Source: Candidatus Nanohalarchaeota archaeon
GTDB taxonomy: Archaea > Nanohalarchaeota > Nanosalinia > Nanosalinales > Nanosalinaceae
Assembly: GCA_022729235.1 (NCBI GenBank)
Contig: JALDAJ010000001.1
Location: 512,001-576,000, forward strand
DNA: 64,000 nt
Reading direction: 5' to 3'
Part shown: positions 36,934-43,855 of the stretch, one piece after another
Layout of the letters: each line of letters opens with the position of its first letter
Numbering within the stretch: the first letter of the stretch is position 1
Notes under the pieces: generated by a model
What the model saw: only the letters and a program-made list of their open reading frames with translations
The model's database searches: none
Told to the model about the DNA's origin: nothing
Program-made: the position numbers and the translations under genes

Positions 36934-37861
36934 AATACTGACCGCGCTCGCCTTTGCGGCGGCAATTTTCATGGGTATTTCTATAGGTGCGTCAAGCATC
37001 GCGCCTGCTTTCGGACCCGTCAACTCTTCAGGCGCAGAGAATATCCTGCGTGCAGCTCTTCTGGGAGGTATCTTCGCTCTCATAGGTTCGGTGGTCCAGG
37101 GAAGGAATGTCACAGAGACCATCGGTTCCGGAATACTGATCGGAGAGATCACACTGCTTCAGGGAACAATCATACTTTTCATAGGTGCTGCGCTAGTGAT
37201 TATAAGCGTCCTGACTGATTACCCTATGCCAACCGCATTCACTGTAACCGGGGCTGTCATAGGCAGTGCTGTTGGCTTCGGTGACGCCCTCAACTATGAC
37301 ACTATCGCCATGATTATCGGGTACTGGGTGATGGTGCCTATAGTTGCGCTATTTATGAGCTACGGTATAGCGGTTGCTTTAAGGCATTTGATACCGAAAG
37401 AAGGGTCTGAGAGGTTTATCCAGGCATTGCTCCTGGTTTCCGGCGCCTACATGGCATATACCACTGGTGCCGGTTCGGTGGGGCTGGCAGTCGGTCCCCT
37501 ACAGTCGATGGACCTGGAGCTCAACGTCGTCCTCATCATAGGAGGGCTGGCGATTATGGCTGGTAGCTGGATGTACTCTCCCCGTATCATAAAGGCGGTT
37601 TCTCGTGACTACACCAATCTCGGTCCGAGGAGGTCTATCGCTGCACTCGGTACTGCGGCTGTCCTGGCACAGGTAGGAATCCAGATGGGTGCACCTATCT
37701 CCGCGAACCTGGCTATCATCGCCTCTGTTATAGGCTCGGGCATGGTGGAAGGAAAGTCCAACATGGAACGCGGCAAGATATTATTTACAGCAGTAGCCTG
37801 GGTCGGAGCGTTCTTTCTCTCAATAGCTCTAACAGCGGGGATAGGGCTGTTGATACAGTAG
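36926..37861 (+). CDS. Inorganic phosphate transporter (PiT family)
   Basis: G.SIGASSIAPAFGP, G..VTETIG, GAPISA duplicated halves. Confidence 0.85.
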   Translation: MGEILTALAFAAAIFMGISIGASSIAPAFGPVNSSGAENILRAALLGGIFALIGSVVQGRNVTETIGSGILIGEITLLQGTIILFIGAALVIISVLTDYPMPTAFTVTGAVIGSAVGFGDALNYDTIAMIIGYWVMVPIVALFMSYGIAVALRHLIPKEGSERFIQALLLVSGAYMAYTTGAGSVGLAVGPLQSMDLELNVVLIIGGLAIMAGSWMYSPRIIKAVSRDYTNLGPRRSIAALGTAAVLAQVGIQMGAPISANLAIIASVIGSGMVEGKSNMERGKILFTAVAWVGAFFLSIALTAGIGLLIQ

Positions 37862-37998
37862 ATGTGTATAGAGTTGTATAACTTATTTTAACTATCTGCT
37901 CTGCAGATAATTTATCCCGGTGAGGGCGTATCACAGAGACGGATAAAGAGTCTTTCGAGGATGGATATAAGACCTCTCTTGGAGAAAGGATAGAGGCT

Positions 37999-38667
37999 GT
38001 GTTCGAGCCGCGCCTAGATGCCAACATGTCCGATTTTCCAGGTGATACGGAGGGATGGAATGTTACTATCCTGAAGAACGGGAGTTCTTGGACACGTAGA
38101 ATGGAGGAAATTGAAGATGCGGTCGATCCAACAGTCGCGCAGATGTTGAAGGGTGAGCTTCATCAAGCCAAACAAAAGTATTCCTGCCTGACCGAAGCTA
38201 TTCTGAATGGCGAGATTGAAGGAGAAGACTTAGAGATTTCTTTAGAAGATACAAAGTCGGAGTATGCCCGGAAATTGATAGAACTGGAGTATATCCAGAA
38301 AGAACTGGAGAACGGCCGAGAAGTTGATTACCAGAATGATATAGATGTAAGCGATTCTGTTCTGGCAGAGGAGAATCCAGAGAAACTGGGTCGTATAATA
38401 AGCGGAGGTAAAACTGCTTTAGACACTAAAGACTGGATCGCCGGGTTACTCCGGTTGTCTGAGGAAGGCGGAGAGATGGTAGACGACTACAATCAGTTGA
38501 AGGAAGGACTCCTATCCCAGGATAACTTCATGGGTGATGTATACGATTCGCTCGATTGGAGCAGGAATAAGTTTGGAACAGGATTGAACGGTCAAAATGA
38601 ACTAGGATACGTAGAATTTGATCAGGAAGGTAATATCCGTGAATACGGGCTTAACTCCTTCCGGTAG
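37999..38667 (+). CDS. Hypothetical acidic protein
   Basis: 222-aa ORF with no recognised motif. Confidence 0.65.
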   Translation: MFEPRLDANMSDFPGDTEGWNVTILKNGSSWTRRMEEIEDAVDPTVAQMLKGELHQAKQKYSCLTEAILNGEIEGEDLEISLEDTKSEYARKLIELEYIQKELENGREVDYQNDIDVSDSVLAEENPEKLGRIISGGKTALDTKDWIAGLLRLSEEGGEMVDDYNQLKEGLLSQDNFMGDVYDSLDWSRNKFGTGLNGQNELGYVEFDQEGNIREYGLNSFR

Positions 38668-38682
38668 ATATAGGTCTTGAGG

Positions 38683-39528
38683 TCACTCGTCCTCCATCAA
38701 ACCGCCGGGTTCTGAATAGGCGATACTGGACGTCTCTACTCCGAGAACTCCTTCTTCAAGTTCCACTTCTCGACAGCTCTCGATCGGTTCAACTTCGAAT
38801 ATATCTCCGGGCTCTAACCCATCTATCTGCTCAAAACGGTGTGGACTCATACTGAGTTCCAGTTCTTCAACTGCTGTCTCTGGTGCGAAACCGGTCATGT
38901 ATCCGCCGGTGCTCGCACCTCCTAGGCGCTGGGTAGATTCATTTATACCGGCACAGACGCTAAACCTCTGTCTCTCTATATCGGCGTGAAGGTAGCCTGA
39001 CTTCCTGATTTCCAGCTCCCCGAACTTGTTCTCGCCTTCCAACATCTCTACCTCTTCTTCCAGGGTCAGGTCGTATTCGGCGTCTACTGCCGCCGCATCA
39101 TAAGCTACGAGAAGTGCTAGTACCGCTCCTATCCCAGCGACTATCTTGAGAGCCTGATCCCGGTTAGGGATGTATTCTTGCTTATTGGTTAACGTGTATC
39201 CGATTGCAGAGAACAGCACTGCGGAAAACAGGAGTGATGCAAGTGTTCCATCAGAGGTTCTCAGGAACCTACCGTTGATGTAAATCAGGAAGCCTAAATA
39301 GGATCCTGCCGAAACAAGGTAGGAAACAAGCTTTACGCCGCGAGCCTCACGTGAAACGCCTGCAACAAGCGTGGATGCGAACACTGCGAACAGCACCGCG
39401 GCGATAGTGAACGGCGACAGGTCCTGTATGTATTCAAACCCGAAGTAAAGCACTGCGAGAACCGCGAAAAACGCGGAGGCGCCGTAGAATATGCGTGAGT
39501 AGTCAAAGTTTTCTGAAGCCATAAACAC
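38683..39528 (-). CDS. Membrane protein (five TM helices plus extracellular domain)
   Basis: Hydrophobic N-half, acidic C-half containing two Cys. Confidence 0.75.
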   Translation of the reverse strand: MFMASENFDYSRIFYGASAFFAVLAVLYFGFEYIQDLSPFTIAAVLFAVFASTLVAGVSREARGVKLVSYLVSAGSYLGFLIYINGRFLRTSDGTLASLLFSAVLFSAIGYTLTNKQEYIPNRDQALKIVAGIGAVLALLVAYDAAAVDAEYDLTLEEEVEMLEGENKFGELEIRKSGYLHADIERQRFSVCAGINESTQRLGGASTGGYMTGFAPETAVEELELSMSPHRFEQIDGLEPGDIFEVEPIESCREVELEEGVLGVETSSIAYSEPGGLMEDE

Positions 39529-39608
39529 AGATTATGCTTATCCGATTTTATAACTGGTGTAGTGTCCGGTTAAGACCGGATAAAAGATAGAGGGAAAAGA
39601 AAGAGTTC

Positions 39609-39824
39609 TTAGATAATGCCGTACTCGTTGAGGACTTTTCTCCAGAAGCTGTAAGCCAGAACTCCAGCCACCACGACAGCGATCCAGGAGACAGACATCG
39701 GGATATTATGAGGTCCGGACTGTAAGCTCCAGCCCATCACCGCCCGCAGAGCGTGACCGGCAAATACTATCGTGAAAATGACTGCAGAAAGAACCTCAAC
39801 CTGTTCATGCTCAAGTAGCTCCAT
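39609..39824 (-). CDS. Small two-TM membrane protein
   Basis: IVFAGHALRAVMGW...IPMSVSW. Confidence 0.65.
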   Translation of the reverse strand: MELLEHEQVEVLSAVIFTIVFAGHALRAVMGWSLQSGPHNIPMSVSWIAVVVAGVLAYSFWRKVLNEYGII

Positions 39825-39866
39825 GTATGTAGAATTAGAGGATCCGAATATAAAGGGTAGTCAAGG

Positions 39867-41771
39867 TCAGAGCCCGGGCATCACGTCGGCAACTATCTCT
39901 CTTATCATCGATCTTATCTCTTCATCCTGGAGAAGTTCCTGGATGAAATCTCTTGCCCGCGCCATCTGAATATCTTCCCCTACCTCTTCAACCACTGCGT
40001 GAGCCTCCTCTACTTCGTGTTCTTCCAGCAGAAGCCGTTCGGCTTCGTCAATCTGTTGAACATGTTCTTCTTCCAGTTCATCTCTATCTCTTAGTCTTTC
40101 AATATTCTGGTAAGTATCCTCCGCCATTTTAATTCTCTGCAGGTCTTCCTGGCCCTCCTTTGTCTCTCTCAGTTCTTCTAGTGTATTCTGGAACTCTGCT
40201 TCGGTTATCTCTCCTTCAGCTACTTGACCGGCTTCTTCATATGCCTGATCAAATAAGTCTTGAACTTCTTCCGATCTTTCGTATGTAAGTTCGTCTTCCA
40301 GTTCTTCAGGAAGTCCGTCTCTCTGGATCTGGCGTTCCATTCTCGTGTCCATCATTCTCACTGTTCTATCGTCTGTTTCTGCATATTTGCTCTCGATTCT
40401 CTCAATCTGTCGGTAGTACTGCATAATTTCTTGCATCTCTTCCTGGTGCTGATGCATCTGGTCGTTTAACTGTGAAAGTTCTCTTTCCGCGGCTCCAGTC
40501 TCTCCCTGATTCAGGAGGTATTCTACCTCGCTTTTCTGACTGCTTATGTCTTCAGATCCTTCTATACCGGCTCTTTCCATCTGCTCGATTCTCTCCTCCA
40601 TTTCTCCAAGGTTTCGTTGGATTTCATAGCTTTCTACTATGTTCCTGGCTTCAGCGACTTCGTAGTCTTCTAGATGGTTCTGCACATCCACTCTCATTTC
40701 CTGGACCTCGTCCTCTGATAGATCAGTTCTTCTTTCCAGTCTGTCCAGCTCGTCAAGGATGCGGTCCTCCGATCTCTCCTTTTCCTGGTGAATGTCGCAA
40801 CTTACAGGAATCTCCTCCCATCCAGGAGGTATAGGGTCATCTTCTTCCAGTTCCTCGCAGCTCCCGTCAGGACCTGCCGCGAAACGTCCATGTTCTAAGC
40901 CTTCGGGATCTCCTGCTATAGCTATCATTTCTCCATCTTCTACGCTTGTATCTGCTTCCCTGTCAGTTCTCAGGTCTAGGTGCTCTTTTGAACCTCTTCT
41001 TATGTCTGAATCGATTCTATTCCAGTCACCGCCTTCTATACGGTAGAAGCTTACGTCGGCGTGTCTCCGTGTTATGAAAAGGTCGTTGCTTGAAACCCAT
41101 GCGCTGGAAACGTCCGCATCGATGTAAAGCTCGATAACATCGAGATTTTCACCGGAGACCTCTACAACGCTGTAAACGACGAGATCATCAGGTAAATCAT
41201 AGTCTGTTTCCTCTTCCAGCTCTACTACTACACCTCCCCTATCTCTTGTATCTCTGGCAGGTTGAACGGTTACTTCATGCCACGCGGATATGGACTCTCC
41301 CAGTAACACTCCCGGTCTTTCACGCAGTTCTTCTCCTGAAACTGTTATCTCCGCACCTGAATCATGATAATCAACTTCGAAACCTTCAACGTCTGGATCG
41401 AAAACTGGCTCGGGTTCTGGTTCGTCAACTACTTCTTCGCCAGTTACATTTATGTCTTCAGAAAGACCGGTCACGGTGTCCGCATCGGCATCCATTACTC
41501 TAACTCTTAGCCTCTCCTCCTCGCCCGTAACCCGGTGCTGGAAGTATGGATCTCCGGTTCTGTAAGACTGACCGTCTATCCGGAAAATAAACCTGTAGTT
41601 TTCTTCCACGTCTTCAGGAAGATCTACACGGCTCTCAAGGATCTCTCCTATCTCATACTTTTCCTGGTCAAAAACCAGCTCAAAATCTTCTTCCTCGACT
41701 TCTGCTGTTGCTGAAAGAGTTAAAGCCAGTATGAAGATTCCAAGTACGGCTATACGTATTTTATATCTCAC
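39867..41771 (-). CDS. Secreted acidic protein: PGF-pre-PGF-like domain plus long helical/coiled-coil C-terminus
   Basis: Signal peptide, VSSAWV...SFYR...W, C-x10-PPGW-x5-C motif, helical repeats. Confidence 0.75.
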   Translation of the reverse strand: MRYKIRIAVLGIFILALTLSATAEVEEEDFELVFDQEKYEIGEILESRVDLPEDVEENYRFIFRIDGQSYRTGDPYFQHRVTGEEERLRVRVMDADADTVTGLSEDINVTGEEVVDEPEPEPVFDPDVEGFEVDYHDSGAEITVSGEELRERPGVLLGESISAWHEVTVQPARDTRDRGGVVVELEEETDYDLPDDLVVYSVVEVSGENLDVIELYIDADVSSAWVSSNDLFITRRHADVSFYRIEGGDWNRIDSDIRRGSKEHLDLRTDREADTSVEDGEMIAIAGDPEGLEHGRFAAGPDGSCEELEEDDPIPPGWEEIPVSCDIHQEKERSEDRILDELDRLERRTDLSEDEVQEMRVDVQNHLEDYEVAEARNIVESYEIQRNLGEMEERIEQMERAGIEGSEDISSQKSEVEYLLNQGETGAAERELSQLNDQMHQHQEEMQEIMQYYRQIERIESKYAETDDRTVRMMDTRMERQIQRDGLPEELEDELTYERSEEVQDLFDQAYEEAGQVAEGEITEAEFQNTLEELRETKEGQEDLQRIKMAEDTYQNIERLRDRDELEEEHVQQIDEAERLLLEEHEVEEAHAVVEEVGEDIQMARARDFIQELLQDEEIRSMIREIVADVMPGL

Positions 41772-41816
41772 AAATCAACTTGAGAGTTTGTTTTATTAAA
41801 AACCTGAGGAGGGATA

Positions 41817-41839
41817 TGGCGGGGGGGTGATTTGAACCC
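41817..41839 (-). repeat. tRNA-Pro 3'-end copy 1 (att-like, 19/23 match)
   Basis: TGGCGGGGGGGTGATTTGAACCC versus the tRNA's TGGCAGGGCTGGGATTTGAACCC; followed by TTATCACG as in copy 2. Confidence 0.75.
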
Positions 41840-41995
41840 TTATCACGACTGATTTAGTAAATCAGTCACGAATTAACGGTTTAATAAACGGCTAAGGCCG
41901 GATATTCAACCTATTAAGGCATGTTCTATGTCAGTATAGTTCGAAATAATCACGTGATTAACTCCTAATAGAACTCCTTGTAAAGCGAAACTTTC

Positions 41996-42217
41996 TCAGG
42001 GTAATAGGTCTTCAGTATTATCCGAATTAATTCCTTTTCTATCCATATACCATAATCCTGCTCTAGCAGCTATGCCTGCAACGATGAGACTTATAGCAAA
42101 TGTAGGGTCTCCACTAGCATCAAGCTCTCTACCTCTCCAACTTCCTTGTATAAGAACAATACCTAAAATTATAGGAACATAAGTCAGTCTTGTTATAGTG
42201 GTTTTGAGGAAGGACAT
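41996..42217 (-). CDS. Small two-TM protein in the AT-rich cassette
   Basis: 73 aa with two hydrophobic segments. Confidence 0.5.
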   Translation of the reverse strand: MSFLKTTITRLTYVPIILGIVLIQGSWRGRELDASGDPTFAISLIVAGIAARAGLWYMDRKGINSDNTEDLLP

Positions 42218-42400
42218 AGTATTGTTTTGAAGTATGAAAATTATCGCTTAAAAATATTTGTGATGAGGGAGCTATTTTCTATCATAATATGGAGTTTACT
42301 TAGAATTAATAGCTCCAATCATAGTCTATATGAATAATATTTAGCCTCTGAACTTGTACATAGATATTTTGGATTCTAATACAAAATAGTTATCATTCTT

Positions 42401-42682
42401 TCATTTTGAGGTTGCAATCTTTAGTGTAAAAGCTATAGGTAGGATAAAAACGCCTATCATGGAAAAAACAAAGACAGCTATACCTAGATAGATATTAAGG
42501 TGCATGATAAGTCCACTTAACATTGCTAGAGCTATTATAGTCAAATGGTATTTGAAAGCATATTTGGAATGCTTTTTAGCGTATTCGCTTTCACTGATAA
42601 AATATATGGCGGCTGGAAGGATTACAGGAGCAAACCATATTGAAAAATGGCTAAGAATTGAAATCAGTTTTTCATTCTCCAT
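42401..42682 (-). CDS. DUF4870-like small membrane protein
   Basis: LSHFSIWFAPVILP..IYF...YAKKHSKYAFKYH; basic composition unlike the host proteome. Confidence 0.7.
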   Translation of the reverse strand: MENEKLISILSHFSIWFAPVILPAAIYFISESEYAKKHSKYAFKYHLTIIALAMLSGLIMHLNIYLGIAVFVFSMIGVFILPIAFTLKIATSK

Positions 42683-42772
42683 GAATAATCAGACTTTTTT
42701 CATGATTTAAATAACCTGATTTCTAGCTTCCAGAGTTTTCGAGTTAGAGGTCTTGATACTGGTTAATTTGGT

Positions 42773-42795
42773 TGGCAGGGCTGGGATTTGAACCC
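42773..42795 (-). repeat. tRNA-Pro 3'-end copy 2 (exact 23/23, att-like)
   Basis: TGGCAGGGCTGGGATTTGAACCC identical to 43626-43648. Confidence 0.9.
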
Positions 42796-42871
42796 TTATC
42801 ACGGCTAGGGATGAGTTCCAAGGCGTAGTTATTTATTATTTTATGACATCATTATAAACTGTGATAAACTT

Positions 42872-43117
42872 ATGCCGACTGTCAGTGTAAACATCCCTGA
42901 GAAAATGAAGGAAAAGATGAAGGAACTGAGCGAGGAAGGGATGTATCAGAATGAATCTGAGTACATCCGTGAAGCTCTTAGGAACAAGATCATGTCTGAT
43001 ACTGGTTTGACTCCTGAAGAGGAAGAACTAGTTGTAGAAAGACTTCAAAGAATGGATGAAAGAGAGAAAAAGGGTAAAACTCTGGAAGAGCTGTCCGAGG
43101 AACTTGGTTTAGAATAG
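42872..43117 (+). CDS. Ribbon-helix-helix antitoxin
   Basis: TVSVNIPE..K.....G.Y.N.SEYIREALR; C-terminal KTLEELSEELGL. Confidence 0.85.
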   Translation: MPTVSVNIPEKMKEKMKELSEEGMYQNESEYIREALRNKIMSDTGLTPEEEELVVERLQRMDEREKKGKTLEELSEELGLE

Positions 43118-43414
43118 ATGGAGTTAGTTGTAGAGCCTGAAGCTGAAGATGACTTGACGCAGTTTAAAGAAGAGCATCAGCAGTATGTATTGGAGCAGTT
43201 GAAAGAATTGAAACAAAGTCCTACTGGTCATGAAAGTTCTGATACCATCCGTGTTAAGGGAAGACCTGTGTTCAAATATAAGATGAAGGAGGGTGATAGA
43301 GGTGGTAAAGATTTTAGGGCTGTCTACGATATAATTGATAGTGAGGTCCGAGTTGTAGCTATTTTCCATAGAGATACAGGTTATGACAAGGAAGAGCTGT
43401 CTGAAAGGCTTTAA
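43118..43414 (+). CDS. RelE/ParE-family toxin
   Basis: EPEAEDDL, DFRAVYDI...V.VVAIFHRD.GY; abuts the antitoxin. Confidence 0.85.
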   Translation: MELVVEPEAEDDLTQFKEEHQQYVLEQLKELKQSPTGHESSDTIRVKGRPVFKYKMKEGDRGGKDFRAVYDIIDSEVRVVAIFHRDTGYDKEELSERL

Positions 43415-43500
43415 ACTCGTTTAAGTTATTTATCTATTTCTCTTTGGCGGAAAAAACTAGTTTTTTCTTTTCAGAAGGATTAATAATAGAAAAAATGCGT

Positions 43501-43625
43501 TAGCAGAGCTGGGATTTGAACCCCAGCCGCAAATCGGAGATTTGCTTGACGGCATCAAATCTTGGGCAGGGCCGCGATTTGAACTCACGCGAAAATCGAA
43601 GATTTTCTAAGTGGTTCTAAATCCA
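43501..43625 (-). repeat. Two tandem ~62-bp palindromic units, each starting with a tRNA 3'-end copy
   Basis: Copies at 43501 (21/23) and 43564 (19/23), each followed by a 7-bp GNA-loop hairpin (43529-43545, 43591-43607) and a closing TCAAATC/TAAATC arm. Confidence 0.8.
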
Positions 43626-43698
43626 TGGCAGGGCTGGGATTTGAACCCAGGTCCGTACCGCCCCGGGGTACGATGATAGTCCACTACACTACCCCGCC
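43626..43698 (-). tRNA. tRNA-Pro (anticodon GGG), CCA not encoded
   Basis: Cloverleaf: GGCGGGG-TA-GTGTAGTGGACTATCAT-C-GTACC-CCGGGGC-GGTAC-GGAC-CTGGG-TTCAAAT-CCCAG-CCCTGCC-A. Confidence 0.9.
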
Positions 43699-43855
43699 AA
43701 AATCACCTTACGCGATTTTGTGTGGATACAAAAACTCTCGCGAGTTTCGCACCCGCCGAACTTCTGAACTCGAAGACCTAGAGAGTCTTCTGTGACCAGC
43801 AACCTCGGAGAGGTTGCGGAGGTTCGATCATCATAAGGCATTCAAAGAATGCCTT
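43699..43855. repeat. Cluster of five short inverted repeats on the 5' side of the tRNA
   Basis: Hairpins at 43699-43719, 43732-43747, 43772-43790, 43799-43817 and 43835-43855. Confidence 0.75.

Follow-up and report, generated by a model that had tools for sequence, protein, structure and literature searches.

Copies of the tRNA 3' end downstream of tRNA-Pro(GGG)

In the genome of a Candidatus Nanohalarchaeota archaeon, the gene for tRNA-Pro(GGG) is followed by an array of further copies of its own 3' end, between which small gene cassettes and short palindromic spacers are located. This array was analyzed in a window of 64 kb, the whole stretch of DNA under study, which corresponds to C1:512001-576000 of a single-contig 1.03-Mb genome (termed G000) with a GC content of 0.485. 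Positions without the prefix C1 are those of the window. Counts given for the phylum refer to 70 genomes, and G001 denotes a relative from the same genus. tRNA-Pro(GGG) is the sole tRNA called by ARAGORN within the window, and the repeated unit comprises its last 23 nt (43626-43648), which recur four times, in each case co-oriented with and downstream of the intact gene:

43625-43699, minus strand: tRNA-Pro(GGG), intact anchor gene (ARAGORN; Rfam RF00005, 48.6 bits)
43564-43586, minus strand: copy 1 of the tRNA 3' end, 19/23 identical, T-stem altered to CGCG..CGCGG
43501-43523, minus strand: copy 2, 21/23 identical, followed in the tRNA direction by a run of six T
42773-42795, minus strand: copy 3, 23/23 identical, preceded on the element side by CGTGATAAG (42796-42803, plus strand)
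41817-41839, minus strand: copy 4, 19/23 identical

A first-pass annotation of this DNA had reported the four co-oriented copies, and their positions and identities (19, 21, 23 and 19 of 23) were reproduced exactly on recheck. When a 22-mer of the tRNA 3' end was used as query, same-strand matches were obtained at 42774 (no mismatch), 43502 (two mismatches) and 43565 (three mismatches), and no match was obtained in 100 shuffles of the sequence. The 19-nt identity that had likewise been noted between the two distal copies was confirmed as an exact 19-mer at 41829 and 42785 (chance expectation 0.03), and it extends 9 nt past the tRNA-derived part. The locus thus has the layout of a tRNA-anchored island, with an intact tRNA at one end and four co-oriented, displaced 3' fragments downstream. 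Because the acceptor strand of copy 4 (CCCCGCC) pairs perfectly with the 5' strand of the tRNA (GGCGGGG), while the present tail contains one G-U pair, the sequence suggests that copy 4 might be the original tail of the tRNA.

tRNA-Pro(GGG) occurs in two sequence types that differ over the whole gene. The gene of G000 is of the type found in G009, G014 and the metagenomic locus L116 and differs from that of G001, and the T-stem of copy 1 matches the other type. With ARAGORN, 15 tRNA genes without introns and, when introns were allowed (up to 203 nt), 35 tRNA genes were predicted in G000, with no tRNA-Asn among them; Rfam finds 30. It was also considered whether the copies are 3' halves of split or permuted tRNAs. 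This candidate was rejected, as copies 3 and 4 have ..ATAAG in place of the 5' T-stem strand, so that their T-stem cannot form, and as neither ARAGORN nor Rfam calls a tRNA at these two copies. The "anticodons" TTC and TCC that can be read in the hairpins are already covered by normal tRNA-Glu(TTC) and tRNA-Gly(TCC) genes elsewhere.

The insertion site in related genomes

The repeat array forms the tRNA-proximal 1.9 kb of a strain-specific insertion of 5.76 kb (37862-43624, 5,763 nt) between tRNA-Pro(GGG) and the gene of a PiT-type membrane protein, which is the ancestral neighbor on the 3' side and whose orthologue ends at 37861. On the 5' side of the tRNA, the genes for a low-molecular-weight phosphatase and NFACT are kept in the relatives. 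The distance from the PiT gene to the tRNA was as follows:

G001, same genus: 40 nt, no repeats
G009: ~0.34 kb
G012: ~1.4 kb
L116 (metagenome): ~1.8 kb, two unrelated genes
G000: 5,763 nt

In G005 and G014 other genes follow tRNA-Pro(GGG), and the genes contained in the gap differ from genome to genome. Since gap size and gene content vary among relatives, the tRNA-Pro(GGG)/PiT site is, judged by this comparison, an insertion hotspot. The empty site in G001 (40-nt gap) and the composition of the cassettes, whose GC content is 0.29-0.40 as compared with 0.485 for the genome, are both as in genomic islands. They agree with the first-pass annotation, in which the copies were taken as boundaries of inserts at a single tRNA; the site has no insert in G001 and other contents in further relatives. 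Neither in the loci of five relatives (≤5 mismatches of 23) nor in L116 (≤6 mismatches of 22) was an additional copy of the tRNA end found. L116 was the only locus retrieved when metagenome contigs were searched via the neighboring phosphatase gene (60% identity, no repeats). By these searches the repeat array is specific to G000 among the genomes seen.

Gene content of the cassettes

Two of the inserts between the tail copies contain genes:

42796-43500, plus strand: cassette 1, 705 nt, GC ~0.40, between copies 2 and 3 (open reading frames (ORFs), Pfam)
42872-43117, plus strand: ribbon-helix-helix (RHH) antitoxin gene (Pfam RHH_1, E 7e-6, 26.2 bits, over the cut-off)
43118-43414, plus strand: ParE-type toxin gene (Pfam ParE_toxin, E 3e-5, 25.1 bits, over the cut-off)
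43450-43467: palindrome GAAAAAAC-TA-GTTTTTTC in cassette 1
41840-42772, minus strand: cassette 2, 933 nt, GC 0.29-0.37, between copies 3 and 4
42401-42682, minus strand (tRNA direction): DUF4870 membrane protein gene, approximately three hydrophobic stretches (Pfam)
41996-42217, minus strand (tRNA direction): 73-aa ORF, one marginal hydrophobic stretch

The RHH/RelE pair that had been proposed for the ~0.7-kb cassette was verified by the RHH_1 and ParE_toxin matches. The stop of the RHH gene at 43117 abuts the start of the ParE gene at 43118, and an RHH antitoxin and a toxin of the ParE/RelE fold as adjacent genes make up a ParDE-type module. Relatives of the ParE protein are patchily distributed: they are present in 18 of the 70 genomes, with a tRNA gene within 1.5 kb in 3 of 13 loci inspected. 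The AT-rich cassette 2 had been described as carrying two membrane ORFs, which holds for the DUF4870 protein, whereas the 73-aa ORF is a weak case with its single marginal stretch. The DUF4870 protein was not found in the other 69 genomes of the phylum except for one weak match, and a large protein collection contained a single homologue (65% identity), encoded on a 1.8-kb contig. The GC content of cassette 2 (0.29-0.37) is low compared with that of the flanks (0.47-0.52) and of the whole genome. Genes run in opposite directions in cassette 1 (plus) and cassette 2 (minus), and the cassettes carry promoter-like AT boxes of their own.

Pfam analysis of all ORFs of the island revealed no recombinase in the cassettes or elsewhere in the island, in line with the earlier description of the inserts as tiny and recombinase-less. 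Since none encodes a recombinase, the units are considered non-autonomous. As in cis-mobilizable elements (CIMEs), copies of the attachment site are present on both sides, and genes for integration or transfer are absent. The DNA of the cassettes gave no match in phage and plasmid records, and the ParE protein gave none in viral contigs.

The remaining, outer part of the insertion (37862-41816) contains four accessory genes encoding proteins of 222, 281, 71 and 634 aa. Three of the four have no Pfam family, and the 71-aa ORF gave one weak match below the threshold. The 634-aa protein (39867-41771) is very acidic, has an N-terminal hydrophobic leader and no Pfam match, and is found at 30-44% identity in 6 of the 70 genomes.

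A conserved arm at the end of cassette 2

The 9-nt extension shared by the two distal copies had been taken as a hint to a common donor-side site. In cassette 2 it is the edge of a longer element:

41832-41893, minus strand: conserved 62-nt arm of cassette 2, directly next to copy 4, with CGTGATAAG, a hairpin of 10-13 bp and an AT-rich box

The search for the extension elsewhere that had been suggested at first pass retrieved the arm twice at C1:75-77 kb and once in G008. The 62-nt arm is 87% identical to C1:75219-75280 and 79-86% identical to C1:76649-76706 in G000. It is 77% identical to a sequence from another genus (G008:C9:3344-3405), where it neighbors an RHH-PIN pair in a region of low GC. 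The copies at C1:75219 and C1:76649 are 1,430 nt apart and bracket two ORFs. On the tRNA-sense strand the arm folds with z = -3.9, and G-U pairs are confined to that strand. The junction between arm and tRNA-tail-like sequence (..CGTGATAAG / GGTTCAA..) is identical in position at three of the four G000 sites, and on this basis the 5' edge of the T-loop is taken as the join (..CGTGATAAG / GGTTCAAATC..).

A site common to all four units was not found: the 9-nt motif CGTGATAAG is common to only two of the four units, and cassette 1 shares this motif with cassette 2 but not the arm, its end having no hairpin. A search of the DNA of the whole order for the arm retrieved G000 and G008 only, and no full-length parent element. 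The surrounding region in G000 (C1:74642-78217) comprises an RHH/ParE-like pair, then the two arm copies bracketing two ORFs of unknown family, and then a low-GC stretch encoding coiled-coil proteins. Neither ARAGORN nor Rfam detects a tRNA gene near the sites at C1:75-78 kb, and the displaced tRNA-like end located there has no parent tRNA in the genome.

Gene-free hairpin units behind tRNA genes

The two tRNA-proximal inserts consist of spacers of ~40 nt:

43587-43625, minus strand: spacer 1, trailer with GGATTT and palindrome GAAAATC-N3-GATTTTC at 43591-43607
43524-43563, minus strand: spacer 2, trailer with GATTTGA and palindrome GCAAATC-N3-GATTTGC at 43529-43545

In both, the palindrome comprises 7 bp with a 3-nt loop. 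Spacer and tRNA end together make up a 62-nt tandem unit, and the two units are 72% identical. They had been noted at first as palindromic spacers. Rather than cassette separators specific to this locus, they are gene-free hairpin units that occur behind many tRNA genes. In G000 a second copy of the tRNA's own 3' end was detected 38-130 nt downstream at at least 8 of 35 tRNA genes (Gly-GCC, Leu-TAA, Glu-TTC, Cys, Phe, Pro-GGG, Lys-TTT and Trp), and partial versions are present at Ser tRNA genes. The layout is shared. The tRNA end and a short trailer are followed by GGATTTGA (an inverted T-loop), a GAAA..TTTC palindrome, a few bases, and the T-loop plus the rest of the respective tRNA tail, with oligo-T often present after the last tail copy. 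The arms of a unit are GGATTTGA / TCAAATCC on the outside and GAAAATC / GATTTTC on the inside, separated by unequal spacers.

In G001, for which 24 Rfam hits were obtained and two were dropped (truncated or sub-threshold), perfect second copies lie 51-106 nt downstream at 5 of the 22 tRNA loci examined. They are carried mostly by other tRNAs than in G000, namely Ala, Glu-CTC, Met, Tyr and a further tRNA, missed by ARAGORN, that contains an intron and has a Lys-like 3' end. Units at Pro-GGG, Gly-GCC and Glu-TTC are confined to G000 in this comparison, and those at Ala, Met and Tyr to G001. Because the two genomes carry units on mostly different tRNAs, the units are, as far as can be read from two congeners, gained and lost quickly.

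For one sub-type the pattern GAAAATC-N3-GATTTTC, 5-8 nt, TTCAAATC was scanned, which gave 27 places in 17 of the 70 genomes and in three families, and none for the reversed pattern as control. A matching upstream tail copy lies within 260 nt at 19 of these 27 places; the remaining ones are mostly diverged copies or the same palindromes read on the opposite strand. Units are also stacked, two at Lys and two at Pro-GGG in G000 and three at tRNA-Lys(CTT) in G038, where an integrase ORF follows within ~50-140 nt. Displaced tails interrupted by further GAAA..TTTC hairpins (19-55 nt) were seen at tRNA-Phe of G001 and, with two hairpins, in the last copy at tRNA-Lys-CTT of G038. From their positions, GAAA..TTTC hairpins seem to be able to insert on their own. 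No Rfam family matches the hairpin units.

The palindrome GAAAATC-N3-GATTTTC occurs at least 12 times in G000, and five of these palindromes lie 19-69 nt behind tRNA genes. It was also observed at six intergenic sites without a tRNA (C1:148488, 202329, 217860, 223024, 486650 and 487341). The three intergenic palindromes that were looked at in detail lie ~20-25 nt upstream of a Shine-Dalgarno-like GAGGT and an ATG, and the palindrome may act as a terminator or operator there. Templating of the GGATTTGA arm on the local tRNA was rejected, as complementarity to the own tRNA is no higher than to other tRNAs (permutation p ~0.95, n=23). An intron reading of the proximal units found no backing in the predicted fold of 43490-43700, in which no bulge-helix-bulge was evident. 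As a whole, the 211-nt transcript of the tRNA plus units is predicted to fold better than shuffled sequences (z = -3.35).

These data bear on the possibility that the proximal copies represent a structured 3' trailer of the tRNA, such as a terminator or processing module, an unusual intron or an alternative 3' exon, which was duplicated locally and is kept by selection or gene conversion. In that case only the distal copies would be scars of integration. The conservation of the unit sequence over three families would be accounted for in this way, as would the oligo-T that usually follows the last copy and not the first, the fold of the transcript, the six non-tRNA sites at which the palindrome lies between genes as a terminator or operator would, and the palindrome variants, which retain their pairing (GAAAATC/GATTTTC, GCAAATC/GATTTGC, GAAGAA/TTCTTC). 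However, a functional trailer fits poorly with units whose presence varies between congeners and between orthologous tRNAs and whose second copies decay or get split by further hairpins. Besides this, the GGATTTGA arm has no special relation to its own tRNA, and neither a bulge-helix-bulge nor an Rfam family was found. We therefore consider a duplicated trailer improbable.

A second array at tRNA-Pro(TGG)

In the genome as a whole, the last 18 nt of each of the 35 predicted tRNAs were used to search within 15 kb, allowing ≤3 mismatches. Copies of the own 3' end were found downstream and co-oriented in 14 cases, upstream in one and inverted in none; three of these 15 copies are cross-matches between neighboring tRNA genes. 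Tail copies at kb scale are restricted to two proline tRNAs. The second of these arrays is located in a low-GC region of 3.7 kb:

C1:155900-159699: second array, anchored by tRNA-Pro(TGG) (C1:159627-159699)

It consists of three cassettes parted by tRNA-end copies at C1:158730 and C1:156522. The first cassette contains an MNT-HEPN pair, the second a 177-aa ORF, an RHH-ParE pair and a membrane protein, and the third a PIN gene with an antitoxin. The genes of this array lie 13-112 nt from the tail copies, and over both arrays four of five cassettes carry a toxin-antitoxin pair. The copy at C1:158730 is preceded by a longer tRNA fragment, the T-loop of which is split by a GAAAATC..GATTTTC hairpin. 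The RHH-ParE module (C1:157433-158026) has a counterpart in G011, a genome from a different genus (L078:2019-2612), with 80% DNA identity over 595 nt and ~85% protein identity by eye. The module is located downstream of tRNA-Pro(TGG) in both genomes; homology stops at the module ends, and the neighbors differ.

Recombinases and the origin of the cassettes

A search for tyrosine recombinases, which had been recommended at first pass, revealed two in G000 (PF00589; 461 and 365 aa, at C1:841 kb and 862 kb), and these are its only recombinases. Both are part of one integrated element:

C1:831263-864053: integrated element of 32.6 kb and low GC, directly downstream of tRNA-Thr(GGT), with both tyrosine recombinases

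The far end of this element carries an 11-nt repeat of the last 11 nt of the tRNA (C1:831263). PF00589 gave no match in the window, so that no integrase lies inside the island, and neither a serine recombinase nor Cas1 (PF01867, 0 matches) nor a Y1 transposase is present in the genome. Mechanisms based on CRISPR/casposons, on REP/RAYT systems (REP, repetitive extragenic palindromic sequence), on TnpB or on serine recombinases were rejected, since the respective domains were not found; a TnpB-like match was below the threshold. In the phylum, tyrosine recombinases are present in 39 of 70 genomes, several of them beside tRNA genes. For CIMEs a helper would be expected, namely an autonomous relative that targets the same site; none was found for the cassettes in the genome and the collections searched.

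Chromosomal integrons are rich in toxin-antitoxin pairs, as is the cargo of the arrays. The array had been interpreted at first as an integron-style platform, and in the strict form of this idea the unit ends would be palindromic, attC-like sites at which a dedicated recombinase encoded elsewhere inserts, excises and re-orders cassettes. An imperfect palindrome is indeed found next to a T-loop copy at unit ends, a hairpin is combined with CGTGATAAG in cassette 2 as well as at both 75-kb sites, and at two tRNAs stacking proceeds in one direction from a fixed gene. On the other hand, no recombinase gene lies beside either platform and an attI-like site is absent. The join GGTTCAAATC does not fit the GTTRRRY core, and with two of four units sharing the motif and no hairpin at the end of cassette 1 there is no common site. 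In addition, genes are found in mixed orientation with their own promoter-like AT boxes, and no cassette was seen at two places. An integron-style platform is therefore not supported, and strict integron-like capture is regarded as very unlikely.

A stronger competitor is that the cassettes are the last remains of integrase-bearing proviruses or plasmids of several kb, which integrated serially and were then deleted down to toxin-antitoxin genes and small ORFs in a streamlined genome, with the toxin-antitoxin pairs persisting because their loss is harmful. Complete elements of this kind exist, as seen in the 32.6-kb element with two tyrosine recombinases at tRNA-Thr(GGT) and in the recombinases of more than half of the genomes (39/70), several next to tRNA genes. 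Integrase-less units flanked by attachment sites are also reported to arise by decay followed by further integration (PMC5704250). Furthermore, a toxin-antitoxin pair is what remains in four of five cassettes. Against decay speaks that in all five cassettes the repeats lie only 13-112 nt from the genes, a trimming rarely to be expected of random deletions. Copy 3 has kept full identity with the tRNA, which points to a recent event. No integrase fragment or other gene of an element is left, and gene-free units of ~62 nt with a make-up conserved throughout the phylum cannot be random remnants. If the units were products of decay, the site would be an ordinary integration hotspot, of interest only for how tightly deletion trims islands. 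Overall, we consider this explanation rather unlikely.

Proposed serial insertion at the tRNA 3' end

Repeats in a common orientation, inserts of foreign composition, a site that is empty in a relative, membership of the proximal spacers in a family of units and the absence of a recombinase from the island are direct observations. They would be best explained if small non-autonomous units had been inserted one after another at the tRNA 3' end, in a site-specific and CIME- or tycheposon-like manner, an explanation to which we assign a probability of about one half. Entry as small units is favored over decay of full-size elements, because the cassettes are trimmed tightly, their right-hand arm recurs at other small cassettes and the gene-free units have a fixed architecture.

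In the proposed scenario, at least four successive insertions would have occurred into the T-loop/3' end of tRNA-Pro(GGG), each of which would provide the tRNA with a fresh 3' end and displace the former end downstream as a dead copy. Inserted in this way would be the two gene-free hairpin units of ~62 nt and the two low-GC gene cassettes. The order of events and the entry as small units are deduced from the arrangement of the copies. The reaction would probably require a tyrosine recombinase that acts in trans or has since been lost, and the toxin-antitoxin pair might help the array to persist.

Several observations weigh against this scenario. Alignment of the locus over relatives, which had been proposed as a check, bore out the variation in size and genes, whereas no relative carries the same cassettes and no boundary-precise presence/absence variant was found among the genomes compared. 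No other genome, and no phage, plasmid or viral contig searched, contained cassettes 1 or 2. The cassettes show no conservation at their left ends (the alignment was unconvincing), and the pattern of the 62-nt arm gave no hits in viral contigs, none in metagenome contigs and, among genome contigs, only the one from G008. The number of mismatches in the copies, from the tRNA outwards, is 4, 2, 0 and 4, so that divergence neither rises nor falls steadily with distance. In the outer 4 kb of the insertion the GC content is host-like, and no terminal repeat is recognizable at the far end. The only integrase-bearing element is located at another tRNA and is bordered by an 11-nt repeat of the acceptor end, not by a 22-nt repeat including the T-loop. 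Finally, the toxin-antitoxin module shared by G000 and G011 is not bounded by repeats.

If units do enter as small, recombinase-less pieces, tRNA tails would serve as general docking points for minimal cassettes in symbiotic archaea with genomes of 1 Mb, which would explain how toxin-antitoxin and membrane protein genes are exchanged in very reduced genomes. A further-reaching proposal, which we judge unlikely at present, is that the phylum possesses an undescribed cassette system in which T-loops and 3' ends of tRNAs act as docking platform and units, each with a folded palindromic site and a tRNA tail, would be stacked by a recombinase acting in trans, as a functional counterpart of integrons. 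Such a system would supply toxin-antitoxin and other accessory genes to genomes with few mobile elements. In practical terms, insertion activity could be followed by counting the gene-free hairpin units, a simple marker that could help to find the responsible enzyme, and tail copies can pass for tRNA fragments or pseudogenes in annotation.

Comparison with known systems

Neither the units nor the arrays were found described for the phylum in a literature search, supplementary tables being outside its reach, and the available text of a preprint on nanohaloarchaeal viruses and satellites contains neither 'att site' nor 'direct repeat' (10.1101/2025.02.15.638363). Short, gene-free, palindromic, multi-copy and intergenic sequences are known as REP sequences, bacterial interspersed mosaic elements (BIMEs) and elements resembling miniature inverted-repeat transposable elements (MITEs), and the mini-units share these properties. 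In contrast to REP/BIME, the mini-units sit behind tRNA genes and include the last ~20 nt of the respective tRNA, and a Y1 transposase (RAYT/IS200) is lacking from the genome. The ParD(RHH)/ParE type II pairs resemble the genes of cassette 1; this likeness concerns the cargo only and is uninformative about movement.

With integron cassettes the array has in common that units are small, are stacked in one direction from a fixed platform and have imperfect palindromes at their ends. Unlike integrons, it is flanked by a tRNA and a phosphatase gene and has no adjacent IntI-type gene, attI or Pc. It also has no 7-bp core sites (RYYYAAC ... GTTRRRY): the repeat is a copy of the end of the platform gene, and genes are found in mixed orientation with promoters of their own.

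Closer parallels exist among tRNA-anchored islands. In archaea, partial tRNA copies that result from integration are reported to be common (PMC9897764). Islands of Prochlorococcus are described as built up from degraded remnants and from elements that stand in tandem with partial tRNAs between them (10.1101/2020.12.28.424599). Tandem islands at ssrA have been reported from Dehalococcoides; they join within the T-loop, each repeat is preceded immediately upstream by a conserved motif that is not part of the target, and some members may be cis-mobilizable (PMC3146451). According to these descriptions, the tycheposon islands of Prochlorococcus and the ssrA islands of Dehalococcoides resemble the array: one end is formed by an intact RNA gene, partial 3' copies in a common orientation lie between successive inserts, older inserts are pushed outward by new ones, and the site varies between strains. 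The Dehalococcoides islands share, in addition, the join in the T-loop and a non-target motif upstream of the repeat that is comparable to CGTGATAAG. They differ in scale and equipment: the described islands measure kb to tens of kb and mostly have their own integrase, whereas the units described here measure 62 nt to 0.93 kb, lack a recombinase and reside in an archaeon with a 1-Mb genome. CIMEs are described as units flanked by attachment sites without integration genes (PMC5704250), and those of the ICESt1 type, like the units here, stand one behind another at a target gene's 3' end and have no genes for integration or transfer. In the form described, CIMEs are defined relative to a known helper of the same site specificity, whereas the one integrase element of G000 uses another tRNA and a shorter repeat. 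tRNA-anchored islands as such are therefore known, and what distinguishes the present one is that it is built of recombinase-less mini-cassettes and gene-free hairpin units.

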